From an uncultured Candidatus Saccharibacteria bacterium (GTDB lineage: Bacteria > Patescibacteriota > Saccharimonadia > Saccharimonadales > UBA10212): 64,000 nucleotides of DNA. Below are positions 1-58,335 of this stretch, one piece after another (the stretch's first letter is position 1; each line of letters begins with the position of its first letter). Below the pieces are notes generated by a model. The model was given only the letters and a program-made list of their open reading frames with translations. It was not told the DNA's origin and ran no database searches. A program made the translations under genes and the position numbers. The stretch lies in the NCBI GenBank assembly GCA_964567555.1, contig CAZMNA010000002.1:5795-69794 (forward strand), in the 5' to 3' direction.

Positions 1-38
1 GGAAAAGGTCAGAGGTTCAAGTCCTCTATCACCCACCA
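1..38 (+). tRNA. tRNA, 3' fragment only (window starts inside the gene); isotype not determinable
   Basis: T-arm AGAGG/TTCAAGT/CCTCT followed by acceptor 3' strand ATCACCC, discriminator A and encoded CCA ending at nt 38. It overlaps the last codons of tgt on the other strand. Confidence 0.6.
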
Positions 39-4384: not shown

Positions 4385-4436
4385 CTGACACCTGAAAGTA
4401 TAACAAAAACTAGCCTACAGGCTGATCTGGCAGGGC

Positions 4437-4991
4437 TTAGCTGTATCTTTTCCGCGCGATACGCTGCATTCGCTTTAGAACCATTTCATCGTCACCCTCA
4501 GACTCGGGACTGTAACCTACAAACGCCAGCCTAGCTATCAATGAGTAAATCAACTCTAGCCTCATTAAAGCTCTGCGTTCTTGGGGGCTATATTCCGTCT
4601 GGGATGCAAACGGATTGATGCTAAAGTTTCCACCCATAGCCTTATGAAAGATTCTGCTCGCTCTATCCATGTGATAATCGGCTGTAACTAGGTTAGCGGC
4701 ACTAAACTGCTCGGGCAACAAAATGTCTCTTTTTGTATAAATAGCGTTGCCAACGGTTTCACGGGAATGGGGCTCAATAAAGATTGCACCTTCAGGAGGC
4801 CCAAGTGGTTCAAAACCGAGCTCGTCTTTCATCAATTCAGAACTGCTGCCTACCAAAATAAGTGGTGTGCCGGTATCTTGCCAAACGTTTAGGCCCAAGT
4901 CTAGTCTCGCCTGTGTATCATTTGAAAGCCCTCCACGTTCACCGCGCGGACCACTTAAGACTACGGTTCCAGTTTTTGTTTTTTCGGGCAC
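4437..4991 (-). CDS. DUF218 (YdcF/SanA/ElyC-like) protein
   Basis: 184 aa. LILVGSSS...GNAIYTK...LVTADYHMDRASRIF resembles the DUF218 core. GTG start preceded by TATAGT-N6. Confidence 0.6.
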   Translation of the reverse strand: MPEKTKTGTVVLSGPRGERGGLSNDTQARLDLGLNVWQDTGTPLILVGSSSELMKDELGFEPLGPPEGAIFIEPHSRETVGNAIYTKRDILLPEQFSAANLVTADYHMDRASRIFHKAMGGNFSINPFASQTEYSPQERRALMRLELIYSLIARLAFVGYSPESEGDDEMVLKRMQRIARKRYS

Positions 4992-5028: not shown

Positions 5029-5060
5029 TGGCGGACCTTAGTGGAGGAAGTGCGGGACTA
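5029..5060 (-). repeat. diverged tRNA-3'-end-like repeat (variant R')
   Basis: Minus strand TAGTCCCGCACTTCCTCCACTAAGGTCCGCCA. It is close to 6513->6483 (AGTTCCAGACTTCTTCCACTAAGGCCCGCCA) and ends in CCGCCA like tRNA-Asp. Confidence 0.5.
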
Positions 5061-5828
5061 CTTTCTGGCGAAGTCGGTAACAATCGGATAATGGTCGGTT
5101 AAGACCTTTGATACAACCTCGCTTCTAACCAGAACGACACCTGAGTACAATATATGGTCTATTTTGCCTCCTTTTGGAGTCGTCCCCAAAGCCTGTAATA
5201 CCTCTTCAAATCTACCTGACCGTAAAAGTTGGGGGAAGAATTCTAGGAGCGATGGATAATCTAGATTGAAATCACCCTGTAGGATGCCATCTCCAATTGA
5301 AGTTGCTAATACTCTTGCTTCCATATCTTCTAATACGGGTTTCGCCAGTTCTGAATAAGGATCAACGCCAAAAGCCCTGAACGGCACTGCGTGTAGTGTT
5401 TGGGCTTGTAAGACAGCTTTGTTGCCCAAGGCAAGATGAACGGAAGTCACGCCCTTATCGTGGCTTCGGGTAGCCCACTCGGCTGTATACCCAGGGTTTA
5501 TAAAGGTTTGGAAGGTGTGATTATCCAATGGGTACCTTGAAATAACCGCTTGCCCAAGATGATAGTCGGGGTCTATATGCGACTCACCGTAATGATCATT
5601 GACCCAGTATGGGTACCCAGCGGCTTCGGCAATTTCTGCAGTCTGGCTGGAGCTACCGTTTTCGTGAGTTTCCTGCAGTGTAACAATATCCGCATTGCTT
5701 TCCTCGATCGTATCAATAATTTCCTCTAAGCCCTCCTGGTCGTAGGGGAAAAGCGTAGGGTCAGCATCAGGGTGGCGTACTTTACCACCACCGATATTCC
5801 ATTGAAGAGCACGGATTACCTCAGACAT
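5058..5828 (-). CDS. endonuclease/exonuclease/phosphatase (EEP) family protein
   Basis: 256 aa with WNIGGG, DIVTLQETH, GDFN and SDHYPIV-type C-terminal motif (LTDHYPIV). Confidence 0.8.
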   Translation of the reverse strand: MSEVIRALQWNIGGGKVRHPDADPTLFPYDQEGLEEIIDTIEESNADIVTLQETHENGSSSQTAEIAEAAGYPYWVNDHYGESHIDPDYHLGQAVISRYPLDNHTFQTFINPGYTAEWATRSHDKGVTSVHLALGNKAVLQAQTLHAVPFRAFGVDPYSELAKPVLEDMEARVLATSIGDGILQGDFNLDYPSLLEFFPQLLRSGRFEEVLQALGTTPKGGKIDHILYSGVVLVRSEVVSKVLTDHYPIVTDFARK

Positions 5829-5867: not shown

Positions 5868-5897
5868 TGGCGGGGCATAGAGTCGGATTTCAGAACT
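5868..5897 (-). repeat. tRNA-Asp 3'-end-like direct repeat, copy 3
   Basis: Minus strand AGTTCTGAAATCCGACTCTATGCCCCGCCA, compared with tRNA-Asp GGTTCAAATCCCGTCCGCCCCGCCA. Confidence 0.7.
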
Positions 5898-5908
5898 TTG
5901 TATAGTAG

Positions 5909-6034
5909 CTAGTACCCAATATTTGTGCCGAGATTATGATAAATCACGACCAGCGCTCCAATTATTGCCACAGCTAGGAATATCGCTGAAAGAATAACTA
6001 GCCGGCGATTGTTTATGGTTTTTCTTTTACTCAT
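5909..6034 (-). CDS. 41-aa single-pass membrane peptide
   Basis: Not in the ORF track. Product MSKRKTINNRRLVILSAIFLAVAIIGALVVIYHNLGTNIGY. TATGAT box 6 nt upstream of ATG. Hairpin AATACCAC-aaaaa-GTGGTATT (5838..5858) downstream. Confidence 0.45.
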   Translation of the reverse strand: MSKRKTINNRRLVILSAIFLAVAIIGALVVIYHNLGTNIGY

Positions 6035-6070
6035 GTGGACATCATACAAAAAATAAGCTCCTTACTCAAA

Positions 6071-6110
6071 GTGCTTATGCTTGGCGGGGCTTAGAGTCGG
6101 ATTTCAGAAC
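6071..6110 (-). repeat. tRNA-Asp 3'-end-like direct repeat, copy 2 (includes 11 nt of tRNA 3' flank)
   Basis: Minus strand GTTCTGAAATCCGACTCTAAGCCCCGCCAAGCATAAGCAC. CCCCGCCAAGCATAAGCA is identical to the end and flank of the genuine tRNA-Asp. Confidence 0.75.
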
Positions 6111-6209
6111 AATATTTGCTTAGTTTGGTAAACCTTAGCTATCTGACTTTACGACTAGACAGTAATCTAACAACAGCAAAGATAGCGGTCAACAGAGTTA
6201 TAGCGACTG

Positions 6210-6410
6210 TTACATAAAAGAGTCTGTGAAGCCGGGATGAGCATAGACAAAGTTACAGCCGTTGAGAGGACAATTAAAAACACCGTGAGCGGGATAAACT
6301 ACATTATTAAATACATAGGCCATAGAGTTTGAATAAATGCCTAGGATAATCGTTGCTATAAGTTCGCCAGCGATAATAATAAGTAACTTAACCACGCTCA
6401 AGTGCTTCAT
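6210..6410 (-). CDS. 66-aa membrane-anchored Cys-containing small protein
   Basis: N-terminal TM helix. TATACT box at 6417..6422, 6 nt upstream of ATG. Confidence 0.5.
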   Translation of the reverse strand: MKHLSVVKLLIIIAGELIATIILGIYSNSMAYVFNNVVYPAHGVFNCPLNGCNFVYAHPGFTDSFM

Positions 6411-6427
6411 GAGCTTAGTATATCAAA

Positions 6428-6468
6428 GTGCTTATGCTTGGCGGGGCATAGAGTCGGATTTTAGAACT
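6428..6468 (-). repeat. tRNA-Asp 3'-end-like direct repeat, copy 1
   Basis: Minus strand AGTTCTAAAATCCGACTCTATGCCCCGCCAAGCATAAGCAC. Confidence 0.75.
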
Positions 6469-6482
6469 ACACAGGTCAGTTT

Positions 6483-6513
6483 TGGCGGGCCTTAGTGGAA
6501 GAAGTCTGGAACT
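6483..6513 (-). repeat. diverged tRNA-3'-end-like repeat (variant R')
   Basis: Minus strand AGTTCCAGACTTCTTCCACTAAGGCCCGCCA, lying 15 nt upstream (in the transcription sense) of copy 1. Confidence 0.5.
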
Positions 6514-6532
6514 ATTTTATATCAGAGCAAGC

Positions 6533-7012
6533 TCATGTTCTGGTTGAATAACCCTGGCCTCGGACCTTTATCAGCGCTTGCTCCAGCTCAGTATAAGGTT
6601 CAACTTGTTTAAGCAGGTTACGACTTACCAGTAGAAAGAGGTGGTAGCGATTAGATTGATTATCATAAACCCAAATGCTCATACTGCGTCCTGGTATGCC
6701 TATTCGTTCTATCCGTAAATTGGCTACCGGCAGACGAAAGATTTCTTGGTTTTGTGCATCTTTTAGCAATAGCTCATTATTGACCAGTGTTAGCCTGCCG
6801 CCTTTATTACGAAACGAATTATAATCTCTCAGAACTTTTACCAGATTCCAGGTAAATTGATACCACCTGCGAACGGTACTTTCGAAATCTGCATTCAATG
6901 TTGGCTGAGCTTGTATGGCCTGTTCAGTTTGGCGGACATTCTTTGTTCGGTAGAGAAATAACAAGATAATTACTAAGGGGCCGCCTAATATGACAATCAG
7001 AGTCACAGCCAT
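6533..7012 (-). CDS. membrane-anchored protein (159 aa), possible PH-like C-terminal domain
   Basis: N-terminal TM helix. ATG at 7012 preceded by TATAGT-N6. The track ORF starts 6 nt earlier at TTG. Confidence 0.5.
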   Translation of the reverse strand: MAVTLIVILGGPLVIILLFLYRTKNVRQTEQAIQAQPTLNADFESTVRRWYQFTWNLVKVLRDYNSFRNKGGRLTLVNNELLLKDAQNQEIFRLPVANLRIERIGIPGRSMSIWVYDNQSNRYHLFLLVSRNLLKQVEPYTELEQALIKVRGQGYSTRT

Positions 7013-7040
7013 AGTCAAACTATACCATAATGCTTATGCT

Positions 7041-7116
7041 TGGCGGGGCGGACGGGATTTGAACCCGCGACCTTCTCCGTGACAGGGAGACGAGCACTCC
7101 GCTGCTCCACCGCCCC
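7041..7116 (-). tRNA. tRNA-Asp (anticodon GUC)
   Basis: Manual cloverleaf GGGGCGG/TG/GAGC-AGCGGAGT-GCTC/G/TCTCC-CTGTCAC-GGAGA/AGGTC/GCGGG-TTCAAAT-CCCGT/CCGCCCC/G/CCA. Confidence 0.9.
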
Positions 7117-8902: not shown

Positions 8903-8978
8903 GCCCTGGTAGCTCAGTGGATAGAGCGCCGCCGTCCTAAGGCGGGCGTCGCAGGTTCGAATCCTGCCCAGGGTACCA
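8903..8978 (+). tRNA. tRNA-Arg (anticodon CCU)
   Basis: Manual cloverleaf GCCCTGG/TA/GCTC-AGTGGATA-GAGC/G/CCGCC-GTCCTAA-GGCGG/GCGTC/GCAGG-TTCGAAT-CCTGC/CCAGGGT/A/CCA. Confidence 0.9.
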
Positions 8979-8983
8979 TGGAA

Positions 8984-9018: not shown

Positions 9019-9113
9019 ACGATGTTTCGTGCCAGGATTCGAGCCAAGGTTCGGTCATCAAGTGGTCACGCGCAGGAGCTGGCTCCGAGCATGACCCGAA
9101 GATGTGCTCTAGT

Positions 9114-9129
9114 CTGCCCAGGGTACCAT
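9114..9129 (+). repeat. 16-nt direct repeat of the tRNA-Arg 3' end
   Basis: CTGCCCAGGGTACCAT is identical to 8964..8979. Confidence 0.8.
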
Positions 9130-9907: not shown

Positions 9908-10822
9908 ATGAAATATGACCAAGCCGTAGCCGAATTTTTGGAGTACATGGAGCTAGAGCAAAACCGCTCTGCTAAGACAATTGAAAATTATAGCCACTAC
10001 CTGACCCGCCTATCCGACTTTGCCGGCGATATAAAGGTGTCTGATATAAATAGTGAGCTCATCCGCAAATGGCGCCTGTGGCTTAACCGGCTTGGCACTA
10101 ATACATCTGATGAATTGTCCAAAACTACCCAGAACTATCATTTAATTGCCGTGCGAAGCTTCTTAAAATTCTGCGCCAAGCGTGAATTTAGTGCCCTGCC
10201 CGCCGATAAAATTGAACTTGCCCGGACAACCCGGCCACAAGTGACTTTTTTGACTCCTGAGGAACTAGAAAGATTAACCAGCCAGACTAAAACCGAAAGT
10301 CTGTCCGGGCTGCGCGACAGAGCGATTATTGAACTGCTGTTTTCTAGCGGGCTTAGGGTCAGTGAATTAGTTGGTCTGGACGGCGACCATATTAATTTAG
10401 CGCGCCGGGAGTTCATGGTCCGCGGTAAAGGCCAAAAGGACCGGCCGATTTTTATAAGTAAAGAAGCAGCGGACTGGATAAGTAAATACCTAGAAAAACG
10501 TGAAGATAACGCCAAACCCATGTTCATCCGCTATAGTGGGCGCAGTAAAGCCGATACCAGCGGCAATTTTCAGCGCCTAACGGCGCGCAGCATCCAAAGA
10601 ATGGTTGCCCGTTATGCCCGTCTAGCCGGCATAACTAAGCACGTTTCTCCGCATACCCTGCGTCATAGTTTTGCTACTGACCTGCTTATGAATGGTGCGG
10701 ATTTACGCTCTGTGCAGGCTATGCTGGGCCACTCAAATATCGCTACTACCCAAATCTATACCCATGTAACCGATCCCCACCTGCGTGAGGTGCACGAAAA
10801 GTTCCATCGGAGCGGCAAATAG
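9908..10822 (+). CDS. tyrosine recombinase XerC/XerD-like
   Basis: C-terminal HTLRHSFATDLLMNGADLRSVQAMLGHSNIATTQIYTHV (R..HxxR..Y catalytic pattern). TGCTATAAT box at about 9872. Confidence 0.85.
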   Translation: MKYDQAVAEFLEYMELEQNRSAKTIENYSHYLTRLSDFAGDIKVSDINSELIRKWRLWLNRLGTNTSDELSKTTQNYHLIAVRSFLKFCAKREFSALPADKIELARTTRPQVTFLTPEELERLTSQTKTESLSGLRDRAIIELLFSSGLRVSELVGLDGDHINLARREFMVRGKGQKDRPIFISKEAADWISKYLEKREDNAKPMFIRYSGRSKADTSGNFQRLTARSIQRMVARYARLAGITKHVSPHTLRHSFATDLLMNGADLRSVQAMLGHSNIATTQIYTHVTDPHLREVHEKFHRSGK

Positions 10823-57592: not shown

Positions 57593-57666
57593 TGTATCCC
57601 CCACCCGCTTTTTGGCGTCTGCTTATGCTTGCGCTAAGACATGCAATACCTTAATTTGGTCTAGTA

Positions 57667-58335
57667 ATGGGAATGGTCAATAAAGACAGCTCTGTTAGAC
57701 CTATGCAGGATGAGGCTAGGGATTTGCGTCTATGTGCGGATGGCCGCCATGACTTCGAGGAATTATCCCCCACCCAGCAAATAGCGGCCATAAGAGCCCA
57801 GCATTCGCTTAACGTCATGGATATGCGCGGTCATATAAGTCTGCGCGAGTGTAAAAGGATGTTTGAGTTCGGTGCAGGTACTGGCGGCTCCGGCTTTGTG
57901 TTAGCCCATTTAGCCCTAATTAATGGTGGCTGCGTAGAAGTAGTGGAAATAGAATCAGATAGAGCCAACGACATTGTACAAAGTGGCATCTTGCCGGCAG
58001 AAAGCGTCCACACCGGCGATGGAGTCCAGAGGCTCCAGCAGCTGGAGCGTGTTGGCAAAAAGTTTGATTTAATAGCCGCCTTTATGTTTGGGCCTGATCT
58101 TAGCGGCGCGCGCATAACAAGACTACTGCCCGCAGCGGCTGATGCTCTTGATGACGGGGGCAAATTATTAGTATCCTCAGACCCCGATACAATGCAAGCC
58201 GCCAGGATTGTGTGTGCCGCTAAGGGGATGGAGTTTGGCGATTACTCCCCGCCTCGGCGAACTTATTATCTATACAAGCCGGACAAAGTGGACACGATTG
58301 TAGTCCCTCGGGCAAATATGCCAGCTGGCTTATAA
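57667..58335 (+). CDS. class I SAM-dependent methyltransferase-like protein
   Basis: Motif I FEFGAGTGGSG, acidic beta-2 end VEVVEIE, FDLIAAF, DDGGKLLV. Confidence 0.6.
   Translation: MGMVNKDSSVRPMQDEARDLRLCADGRHDFEELSPTQQIAAIRAQHSLNVMDMRGHISLRECKRMFEFGAGTGGSGFVLAHLALINGGCVEVVEIESDRANDIVQSGILPAESVHTGDGVQRLQQLERVGKKFDLIAAFMFGPDLSGARITRLLPAAADALDDGGKLLVSSDPDTMQAARIVCAAKGMEFGDYSPPRRTYYLYKPDKVDTIVVPRANMPAGL

Follow-up and report, generated by a model that had tools for sequence, protein, structure and literature searches.

A tRNA-Asp-anchored array of putative integrase-less mini-cassettes recurs in Saccharibacteria

The tRNA-Asp gene of an uncultured Candidatus Saccharibacteria bacterium is followed by a tandem series of small DNA segments, each closed by a short repeat which imitates the 3' end of a tRNA-Asp. 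The locus lies in a stretch of 64,000 nucleotides (assembly GCA_964567555.1, contig CAZMNA010000002.1, positions 5,795 to 69,794), called the window hereafter and numbered from its first letter. The same anatomy recurs in other genomes, its content turns over between close relatives, and the segments carry no recombinase. The locus is read here, at about even confidence, as a tRNA-Asp-anchored array of mini-cassettes lacking an integrase, which would have been built by site-specific recombination with the enzyme acting in trans. Serial accretion of small cassettes at one tRNA had been proposed in a preliminary description of the sequence; the anchoring at the tRNA, the att-like (attachment site-like) repeats and the lack of an integrase have stood, but the repeats do not appear to be duplicated 3' ends of the resident tRNA. 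No earlier description of such arrays in Saccharibacteria was found in literature searches, and the array is apparently an undescribed recurrent gene-capture hotspot.

The array is carried by the minus strand. Its main repeats are called type 1, and flank A denotes the 10 nt AGCATAAGCA found directly after the tRNA gene (7031-7040) and after two of the repeats. Proceeding from the tRNA, the features are as follows.

7041..7116, minus strand: intact tRNA-Asp(GTC) (ARAGORN; Rfam tRNA 61.7 bits; cloverleaf fold)
7019..7040, minus strand: left end of cassette 1, flank A AGCATAAGCA and then extended -10 TGGTATAGT (hexamer 7019-7024), 6 nt before the ATG
6533..7012, minus strand: cassette 1 gene, 159 aa, GC 0.42
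6428..6468, minus strand: type-1 copy 2, AGTTCTAAAATCCGACTCTATGCCCCGCCA, with flank A AGCATAAGCAC (sequence, repeat search)
6210..6410, minus strand: cassette 2 open reading frame (ORF), 66 aa, N-terminal transmembrane (TM) helix, GC 0.38
6071..6110, minus strand: type-1 copy 3, GTTCTGAAATCCGACTCTAAGCCCCGCCA, with flank A AGCATAAGCAC (sequence, repeat search)
5909..6049, minus strand: cassette 3 ORF, one TM helix, GC 0.40, predicted ORF only
5868..5897, minus strand: type-1 copy 4, AGTTCTGAAATCCGACTCTATGCCCCGCCA, terminal, lacking flank A and followed by the different flank GTATAGACAAA
5838..5858, minus strand: intrinsic terminator hairpin AATACCACTTTTTGTGGTATT and T-run, directly after copy 4

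The tRNA-Asp gene is the anchor and attL-like left end of the array, copy 2 an attP-like internal junction, and copy 4 the terminal, attR-like one. The hairpin after copy 4 may be the original terminator of the tRNA-Asp gene, because its position matches that of the tRNA-Asp terminators of relatives. The 29-mer GTTCTGAAATCCGACTCTATGCCCCGCCA occurs on the minus strand at 5868-5896 (no mismatches), 6082-6110 and 6439-6467 (one mismatch each); no further site is present in the 64 kb, and none of 100 shuffles contained any match. The minus-strand sequence of the three repeats is identical to that given in the preliminary description, and ARAGORN and Rfam agree with it on a tRNA-Asp with a GUC anticodon at 7041-7116. 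The repeats had been described as the T-loop, acceptor strand and CCA of this tRNA. This holds for its last 9 nt, GCCCCGCCA (7041-7049), the only part of the tRNA exactly common to the repeats, and not for the rest: the remaining 20 nt are alike in the three copies and unlike the tRNA, and the portion GTTCTGAAATCCGACTCTAT, taken for the T-loop, exceeds the true T-arm and acceptor strand by 5 nt. Similarly, of the 11 nt of 3' flank thought to accompany two copies, 10 match, the eleventh base being T at the tRNA and C at the repeats. The 19-mer GCCCCGCCAAGCATAAGCA, made of the tRNA end and the flank, is found three times (tRNA, copy 2, copy 3; chance expectation 0.01). Judged by their sequence, type-1 repeats would form a distinct family of pseudo-tRNA 3' ends, and not be copies of the end of the resident gene. 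The complete site, pseudo-tRNA-Asp 3' end and flank A, measures 41 bp and reads AGTTCGGAAATCCGACTCTATGCCCCGCCAAGCATAAGCAC.

Type-1 repeats are not peculiar to the window. Public collections, about 10^12 bases in all, were scanned for the exact pattern ATCCGACTCTNNGCCCCGCCA, for whose 19 specified bases a few chance matches are expected in a data set of this size. Matches fall in 8 stretches of one-genome-per-species contigs and in 18 of metagenome contigs. True type-1 loci reside in 5 metagenome-assembled genomes (MAGs) of Saccharibacteria and in about 11 metagenome contigs which resemble them in motif context or synteny genes. At all of these approximately 16 loci the match sits within a motif of 29-30 nt, consensus AGTTCGGAAATCCGACTCTATGCCCCGCCA, preceded by unrelated sequence. 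About 10 other matches, in Pseudomonas, Acidobacteriota, Cohnella and unlabelled contigs, lack the 5' part of the motif, are at about chance level, and were set aside. Both the best named homologs of the window proteins and the syntenic loci belong to Saccharibacteria/Saccharimonadales MAGs.

In 9 of the 10 loci in which a tRNA-Asp is in view the motif lies downstream of it, on the same strand, at distances from 15 nt to 3.4 kb. The exception is locus L021, where the motif comes after a RelB/YafQ-like pair, 3 kb from tRNA-Thr/Gly and not downstream of tRNA-Asp; in the variable region of this locus ORFs at 6646 and 8206 (plus strand) have the same first ~14 codons (MHKLTPyKVRPYAP), about 45 nt being repeated. 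Non-identical extra copies were sought by an nhmmer profile search, which finds five in L038 and three in L033, all downstream of tRNA-Asp. Two copies, one strong and one degenerate, follow tRNA-Asp in L019/L027, and three motif copies each are found in L039, L035, L016 and L022. The motif does not behave as a dispersed repeat of the REP (repetitive extragenic palindromic) or MITE (miniature inverted-repeat transposable element) kind: all window copies reside at one locus, the motif has no inverted repeats, and in the 179-kb and 259-kb contigs of L038 and L039 the exact matches make one cluster each.

Mean column identity, taken over 27 strong copies of 17 loci, is 0.95 within the 30-nt motif, as against 0.43 in the preceding 15 nt, 0.57 in the 11 nt that follow, and 0.42 farther on. 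Flank A, AGCATAAGCA, is present in the 11 nt after the motif in 12 of the 27. In L038, as in the window, tRNA-Asp is directly followed by AGCATAAGCA, and internal copies carry the same flank. In terminal copies conservation ends exactly at CCA, and diverse sequence follows, very often an intrinsic terminator. Relative to the consensus, the window copies show changes at 1-2 of 29 positions, and the window tRNA-Asp is identical at 55-57 of 76 positions to those of other motif-bearing genomes (about 20 of 76 differ).

Each interval of the window array contains one small ORF with an N-terminal TM helix, as the preliminary description had it, of 159, 66 and 41 (or 46) aa. The hydrophobic N-terminal 19-mers of the 159-, 66- and 41-aa ORFs have Kyte-Doolittle means of 2.9, 2.4 and 3.1. 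Translation of cassette 3 could start either at ATG 6034, yielding 41 aa, or at TTG 6049, after AAGGAG, yielding 46 aa. Each ORF had been credited with its own -10 box, and the hexamers TATAGT, TATACT and TATGAT are indeed found, each exactly 6 nt before the ATG of its ORF; in cassette 2 an extended -10, TGATATACT, spans 6417-6425, after copy 2 and flank A, and in cassette 3 TATGAT spans 6041-6046, upstream of ATG 6034. This constant spacing suggests that the cassette ORFs may give rise to leaderless transcripts. GC content is 0.38-0.42 in the window cassettes and 0.47 in the flanks.

Among 1.8 billion representatives there is a single homolog (49% identity) of the 159-aa protein, whose gene lies outside any array, and the ORF is taken as a real gene because this homolog exists. 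It has no family assignment. Its predicted fold includes the N-terminal TM helix, a long helix, and a six-strand beta domain with a C-terminal helix. In Foldseek searches the AlphaFold2 single-sequence model (predicted local distance difference test, pLDDT, 66) has no match in the PDB at E<=0.001, and only weak PTB/PH-like matches were seen, from which one might guess at a PH-like protein. The 66-aa ORF is an orphan, the sole match in 5.8 billion protein clusters being itself. Thus the search for the peptides elsewhere, suggested in the preliminary description, led to a homolog in a non-array context for the first and to none for the second. The three ORFs do not match one another in all-against-all blastp, in agreement with the lack of obvious homology noted at first reading.

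These data bear on a local origin of the array, by which the 3' region of the tRNA would have been duplicated in tandem together with a downstream gene and the units would then have diverged, the three ORFs being diverged paralogs or noise. In its favour are the direct, tandem arrangement of the repeats in one orientation, the TM helix with which each of the three ORFs begins, and the longer unit common to copies 2 and 3. The conservation of the motif across genomes contradicts such an origin: the repeats fit a family from distant genomes much better than the local tRNA, and unrelated genes occupy the same repeat frame elsewhere, as the mutually dissimilar ORFs do here. We give this account hardly any credence.

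A second family of repeats, type 2, and an additional gene mark the array.

6483..6518, minus strand: type-2 pseudo-tRNA-3'-end motif AAAATAGTTCCAGACTTCTTCCACTAAGGCCCGCCA, 15 nt upstream of copy 2
6126..6138, minus strand: decayed type-2-like remnant CTAAGGTTTACCA, 15 nt upstream of copy 3 (alignment)
5058..5828, minus strand: endonuclease/exonuclease/phosphatase-family (EEP) gene, between type-1 copy 4 and a type-2 motif
5029..5064, minus strand: type-2 motif AAAGTAGTCCCGCACTTCCTCCACTAAGGTCCGCCA, beginning at the EEP stop codon

The type-2 consensus, AGTTCCAGACTyCTTCCACTAAGsCCCGCCA, has the AGTTC start and the CCCGCCA end in common with type 1. The repeat finder gives an 83% match between 6483-6518 and 5029-5064, and the former is nearly identical to a copy in genome L035, there followed by AGCATAGGCA; similar sites are found in L039. 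Type 2 is handled as a separate family on account of this self-match and of the L035 copy. The alternative of degenerate type-1 copies was discarded, the local alignment score (20) being within the window background of 20-24. The 13-nt remnant at 6126..6138 may be assigned to type 2 with low confidence on its own. Its distance from copy 3 equals that of the type-2 motif from copy 2 (15 nt), and since the spacing agrees at both, the junction unit common to copies 2 and 3 would measure about 85 nt. The EEP gene is probably an older, fourth cassette, because it is bracketed by type-1 copy 4 and a type-2 site, and the array would then reach over it, with the distal end probably at about 5029. EEP homologs of relatives reside in unrelated contexts devoid of motifs; when these homologs were used to look for an empty site, the closest were at most 58% identical, in contexts with neither tRNA-Asp nor motif. 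Farther out, the stop region of a DUF218 gene (4428-4440, minus strand) reads CTAAGCCCTGCCA, resembling the type-1 and type-2 ends CTATGCCCCGCCA and CTAAGGCCCGCCA, and tRNA-Thr and tRNA-Gly come after it; in L018 a DUF218 gene likewise adjoins a motif copy. The match is within window background, and that the array extends to this site might be entertained as speculation.

Relatives keep the tRNA-Asp gene and the repeat, with wholly different DNA between them; the locus is far from the invariance that the preliminary description had named as the outcome speaking against it. Between L026 and L031, two loci of a single metagenome, identity is 97.6% through tRNA-Asp and 91.6% once the motif has begun, counted from its first base, and unrelated inserts of 727 nt (L026) and 808 nt (L031) separate tRNA and motif. 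L033 and L038 share 96.9% identity as far as the final base of tRNA-Asp, beyond which they carry unrelated arrays of three and five units, respectively. Arrays which differ wholly between contigs about 97% identical next door argue for ongoing turnover. Most cassette proteins have no family match. Assignable cargo includes a MazE-type antitoxin with a PIN toxin, a YafQ/ParE-type toxin, a low-affinity iron permease, a 644-aa PEP-utilising enzyme, a cupin, and a DUF4190 membrane protein, and looks like mobile-cassette cargo. Cassettes are co-oriented, hold mostly a single ORF, and vary in content among relatives.

Strains carrying the window itself were retrieved by exact-protein look-ups with the EEP, 159-aa and PpiC proteins in JGI, ENA and Logan samples; the 100-kb contig Ga0265334_10000039 of JGI metagenome 3300028573 takes in the window. 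Further source metagenomes are JGI 3300028556, ENA ERZ272454xx, SRR8464961/2 and SRR9009751. Some 15 contigs, drawn from several samples, are colinear across the locus, with identities of at least 99.87%. Because all sampled strains are identical, the window array itself may be either still mobile or fossil.

Such invariance suits the view that the repeats are fossil scars. Larger integrase-bearing elements (similar to prophages, tycheposons or integrative and mobilizable elements) would have entered tRNA-Asp serially and decayed, leaving att sites and a few cargo genes; nothing would move any longer, and the motif would derive from one element family visiting many Saccharibacteria. Other streamlined genomes offer well-documented cases of partial-tRNA scars in tandem and of degenerate remnants (10.1101/2020.12.28.424599). 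True partial copies of the 3' end of the resident tRNA-Asp, followed by flank A, are found in L020 (18 nt) and L033 (13 nt) and are classical integration scars within the same arrays; some motif copies are clearly degenerate (L019 7013, L038 4131, L022 1121). The window itself has a classical scar at tRNA-Arg, in the form of an exact repeat of 16 nt (8964-8979 and 9114-9129). Here the last 15 nt of tRNA-Arg(CCT) (8903-8978, plus strand) plus one base, CTGCCCAGGGTACCAT, recur 150 nt downstream, and the segment of about 135 nt between the repeats contains a terminator hairpin and an inverted T-arm copy (9033-9045); the pair looks like a second att-type scar, with almost no cargo left. Against fossils stand the ongoing turnover and the lack of any integrase fragment in the approximately 16 arrays. 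Moreover, the motif stays at about 29/29 amid unrelated flanks, unlike a sequence in neutral decay, the sub-kb, single-ORF spacing recurs in many independent genomes, and cassettes bear their own promoters directly after the site. Fossil scars of larger elements are on balance an unlikely account, with a real though minor chance.

The conservation of the motif implies some sequence-level function, and this function could in principle be exerted by RNA: the motif would be a tRNA-like 3' element of the transcript (serving RNase P/Z as a punctuation or processing signal, mimicking the CCA end, or stabilising the mRNA), duplicated along with gene units. It ends in GCCA as tRNA-Asp does, is co-oriented with tRNA-Asp and most ORFs, and is often followed by a terminator. 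An acceptor/T-arm minihelix, suggested in the preliminary description as a possible RNase P/Z substrate, finds no support, however. Folding energies are no better than those of shuffles, either for the repeats as RNA (z = +1.3, -0.8, -1.2) or for the junctions as DNA on either strand (z = +1.8, +1.5, -1.0, -0.6, -0.7, 0.0). No conserved complementary 5' strand is present upstream of the motif. Rfam gives no tRNA-fragment score at the repeats even at E<=1, detecting only the four tRNAs, and ARAGORN reports no tRNA or tmRNA at any motif copy. A role at the RNA level is very improbable.

Under the preferred reading, that of site-specific recombination at tRNA-Asp, a cassette would be organized as follows. 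The left end would often consist of AGCATAAGCA and an extended -10 or a -35/-10 promoter, sometimes of a terminator; the body would usually be one ORF; and the right end would be the near-invariant 29-30-nt imitation of the tRNA-Asp 3' end, type 1 AGTTCGGAAATCCGACTCTATGCCCCGCCA or type 2. We infer a crossover in or beside CCCGCCA, the common end of tRNA-Asp and motifs. On insertion the tRNA would stay intact and gain the left flank of the cassette. An attL would accordingly be made of tRNA, core and cassette left end, internal junctions would be attP-like, and an attR would be made of the last motif, the core, and the old chromosomal flank with the tRNA terminator. The layout of the window fits exactly what insertion with a crossover at CCCGCCA would predict. 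The recombinase would reside outside the cassettes and act in trans, the sole candidate in view being a syntenic Xer gene.

9908..10822, plus strand: XerC/D/XerA-type tyrosine recombinase, 2.8 kb from the array

A Pfam scan of 53 window ORFs identifies this gene as the only recombinase in the window, in line with the earlier statement that no integrase lies in the array and that the nearest tyrosine recombinase is the one at 9908..10822; integrase fragments are missing from the window array as well. Around 16 arrays, tblastn with Xer and a Pfam scan of 92 ORFs detect only four orthologous Xer genes. Four other loci keep the order Xer - ndk - tRNA-Arg - bPH - PpiC and have the tRNA-Asp array farther on; in them Xer is 76-80% and PpiC 45-61% identical to the window proteins. 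The Xer protein scores 141.7 bits with the integron-integrase model TIGR02249 (integrase_gron, cut-off 265) and 85.9 bits with NF011946 (cut-off 435). As the trans-acting enzyme it is a candidate only. Motif and flank A together hold a dyad, TATGC-CCCGCCAA-GCATA, which fits the geometry of simple tyrosine-recombinase sites and is suggestive at most.

An exchange that dispenses with any dedicated recombinase has also to be considered. The locus would be a hotspot of homologous recombination in naturally competent cells, with tRNA-Asp and the motif (with flank A) serving as short homology arms by which RecA swaps or adds imported segments. A published account makes mention of natural competence in Saccharibacteria (PMC10633639). 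No dedicated recombinase was found, conserved blocks always bound variable segments, and the cassette 1/2 and 2/3 junction units have about 85 nt in common. Blocks of 30-45 nt, however, are very short for RecA-driven exchange, which would leave unexplained the exact end of conservation at CCA in terminal copies of many genomes, the imitation of a tRNA 3' end by the site, and the true partial tRNA copies in the same arrays. We consider this account improbable.

Several observations weigh against site-specific recombination of cassettes as such. The site contains no dif-like palindrome, so that Xer is tied to it as a candidate only: of the left 11 nt, 4 agree with inverted flank A, leaving only a 5-bp dyad, and a search for dif-like sites yields a single ATAA-N6-TTATG match (57049), at chance level and far from the array. 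Gene orientation gives no hint that the locus lies at the replication terminus. Window genes occupy the minus strand up to 55 kb and the plus strand from about 56 kb, a divergent, origin-like arrangement 50 kb from the array; the GC skew has no consistent trend and is weak. No element, phage or plasmid combining the motif with an integrase was found among viral contigs and phage and plasmid records, although absence from these collections is weak evidence: IMG/VR contains no match to the type-1 motif, and BLAST of the site against phages and plasmids gave nothing meaningful. Two IMG/VR matches to CCCGCCAAGCATAAGCA lie within coding sequence, have no tRNA-like context, and were dismissed as chance. 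No cassette gene is common to two loci, as judged by all-against-all blastp of the ORFs of 17 loci, and the sole homolog of the 159-aa gene resides, as said, outside any array. Neither an excision product, nor an empty site, nor a presence/absence variant of a cassette was seen among the ~15 strain contigs. In L019 7801-7856 (= L027) the distance from tRNA-Asp to a full type-1 motif is only 15 nt; the spacer TTTCTATACTTTGAT includes ACTTTGATA, which in the window comes after flank A, and farther on there are a MazE/PIN pair and a degenerate motif. This spacing needs either an 'empty' first cassette or recombination between two motif copies. Finally, the exact-match search demanded 19 motif positions, and the invariance among seed matches is partly circular. 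Support free of this circularity comes from the 9 unconstrained 5' positions of the motif, which are also conserved, from copies added by the nhmmer search, which have 1-4 or more mismatches, and from the window copies, which stay within 1-2 positions of the consensus although the tRNA-Asp of the window matches those of the other genomes at no more than 55-57 of 76 positions.

The array shares features with several known systems. Tandem ssrA-specific islands with partial-gene repeats are reportedly found in Dehalococcoides, and tycheposon-shaped islands of Prochlorococcus are arranged in tandem with partial-tRNA repeats (10.1101/2020.12.28.424599). The arrays resemble both in being anchored to a single-copy tRNA (or tmRNA) gene of a streamlined genome, in that new insertions would push older ones outward, in content hypervariable among close relatives, and in degenerate remnants. 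As to units ending in a direct repeat of the 3' part of the gene, the resemblance is partial, 9 nt of the tRNA being repeated exactly in the window and 13-18 nt in L020 and L033. Those islands, in contrast, measure kilobases and encode their own tyrosine or serine integrase, and their repeat is a copy of the resident tRNA; units described here measure 0.2-2 kb, usually carry one ORF and no recombinase, and end in a pseudo-3'-end 5 nt too long and conserved across genomes. What sets the arrays apart from known tandem tRNA islands are the sub-kb, one-ORF units with a promoter, the lack of an element-borne recombinase, and the cross-genus repeat.

Integrons consist of an integrase (IntI), an attI site, and arrays of cassettes bearing attC sites. 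As in integrons, cassettes are mostly single-ORF and co-oriented at a fixed site, with one 3' recombination site each; the recombinase stands apart from the cassettes, orphans and toxin-antitoxin pairs abound in the cargo, and arrays vary among close relatives. Unlike integrons, the arrays have no IntI (the nearby recombinase falls below the model cut-off), their site is linear and conserved rather than a folded imperfect palindrome, the motif starts with GTTCKR in place of the attC core GTTRRRY, cassettes bring their own promoters, and the anchor is a tRNA gene rather than an attI beside intI. By analogy the arrays would work more like an integron than like tRNA islands, yet both defining features of integrons, IntI and attC structure, are missing.

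Cis-mobilizable elements (CIMEs) of streptococci accrete site-specifically at tRNA genes without an integrase of their own; they are decay products of integrative and conjugative elements, several kb long. Like CIMEs, the segments described here are att-bounded, free of recombination or transfer genes, and in tandem at the 3' end of a tRNA gene, and the integrase would be supplied from elsewhere, as it is to CIMEs by another element. Unlike CIMEs, they have no parent element in sight, and their repeat is common to several genera. Integrative mobile elements exploiting Xer (IMEX) at dif, and the pdif modules of Acinetobacter plasmids, are small recombinase-less modules moved by host Xer proteins. 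The resemblance extends to small recombinase-free modules, short conserved sites, and Xer as the only recombinase near the arrays. The site differs in having no 11-6-11 dif-like palindrome, only the weak 5-bp dyad around CCCGCCAA; moreover, pdif repeats alternate and those of the array are direct, and gene orientation does not place the locus at the terminus.

Flank A is not confined to the arrays. The 12-mer CAAGCATAAGCA is found off-array in the window (57620-57631, minus strand), in L020 (~5456), and in L018 (~523-552). At 57.6 kb the plus strand reads TGCTTATGCTTG, the 3'-terminal TTG of which opens a -35-like TTGCGC, 17 nt before a -10-like TTAATT; the two boxes precede gene 57667-58332. 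In L018 the 12-mer forms a perfect palindrome, TGCTTATGCTTG-ctaatt-CAAGCATAAGCA, with a geometry unlike that of the TATGC/GCATA dyad, and in some cassettes flank A is inverted and fused to a TTGACT -35 box. Flank A could be a protein-binding or promoter element. Elsewhere in the window, positions 1-38 (plus strand) correspond to the 3' half of a tRNA, GGTTCAAGTCCTCTATCACCCACCA, cut by the window edge. Directly after Xer, a cutinase-family ORF (PF01083; 10909-12003, plus strand) has a GC content of 0.60 (window 0.487) and was seen in every strain contig; a foreign origin is probable, the composition being of an actinobacterial-like kind that would fit the hosts of Saccharibacteria. Regions at 12-24, 37-42, 56.8-57.6 and 60.8-63.9 kb encode a type IV pilus cluster (PilB/T-like ATPases, PilC, PilM, prepilin peptidase), FtsK, a heliorhodopsin, a ResIII helicase-type restriction subunit, and two Fic/DOC proteins.

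To our knowledge, members of the candidate phyla radiation (CPR), also called Patescibacteria, have very small genomes and few recognisable mobile elements, and the turnover of their accessory genes is poorly understood. A recurrent, precisely bounded tRNA-Asp locus would be a compact gene-capture device in these bacteria. Even if the arrays were only fossils, they would still testify that an unknown element family has frequently invaded Saccharibacteria at tRNA-Asp. The 41-bp site is a concrete substrate for seeking the responsible enzyme, and should an Xer-type enzyme act on it, the range of Xer-exploiting mobile elements would be extended to a tRNA-anchored cassette system. In the few Saccharibacteria that are cultivable and naturally competent, the locus would also lend itself to genetic tools as a ready-made and probably neutral site of insertion. 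It is possible, and we advance it tentatively as the less probable extension of these findings, that Saccharibacteria own a cassette-capture platform integron-like in function, in which the 3' end of tRNA-Asp is the insertion site, a linear site of ~41 bp (pseudo-tRNA-Asp 3' end and CAAGCATAAGCA) marks promoter-bearing mini-cassettes, and a host recombinase acting in trans, possibly Xer, inserts, excises and shuffles them. If so, these epibionts with tiny genomes would be able to keep accessory genes, membrane and toxin-antitoxin genes among them, in one compact and hypervariable locus.

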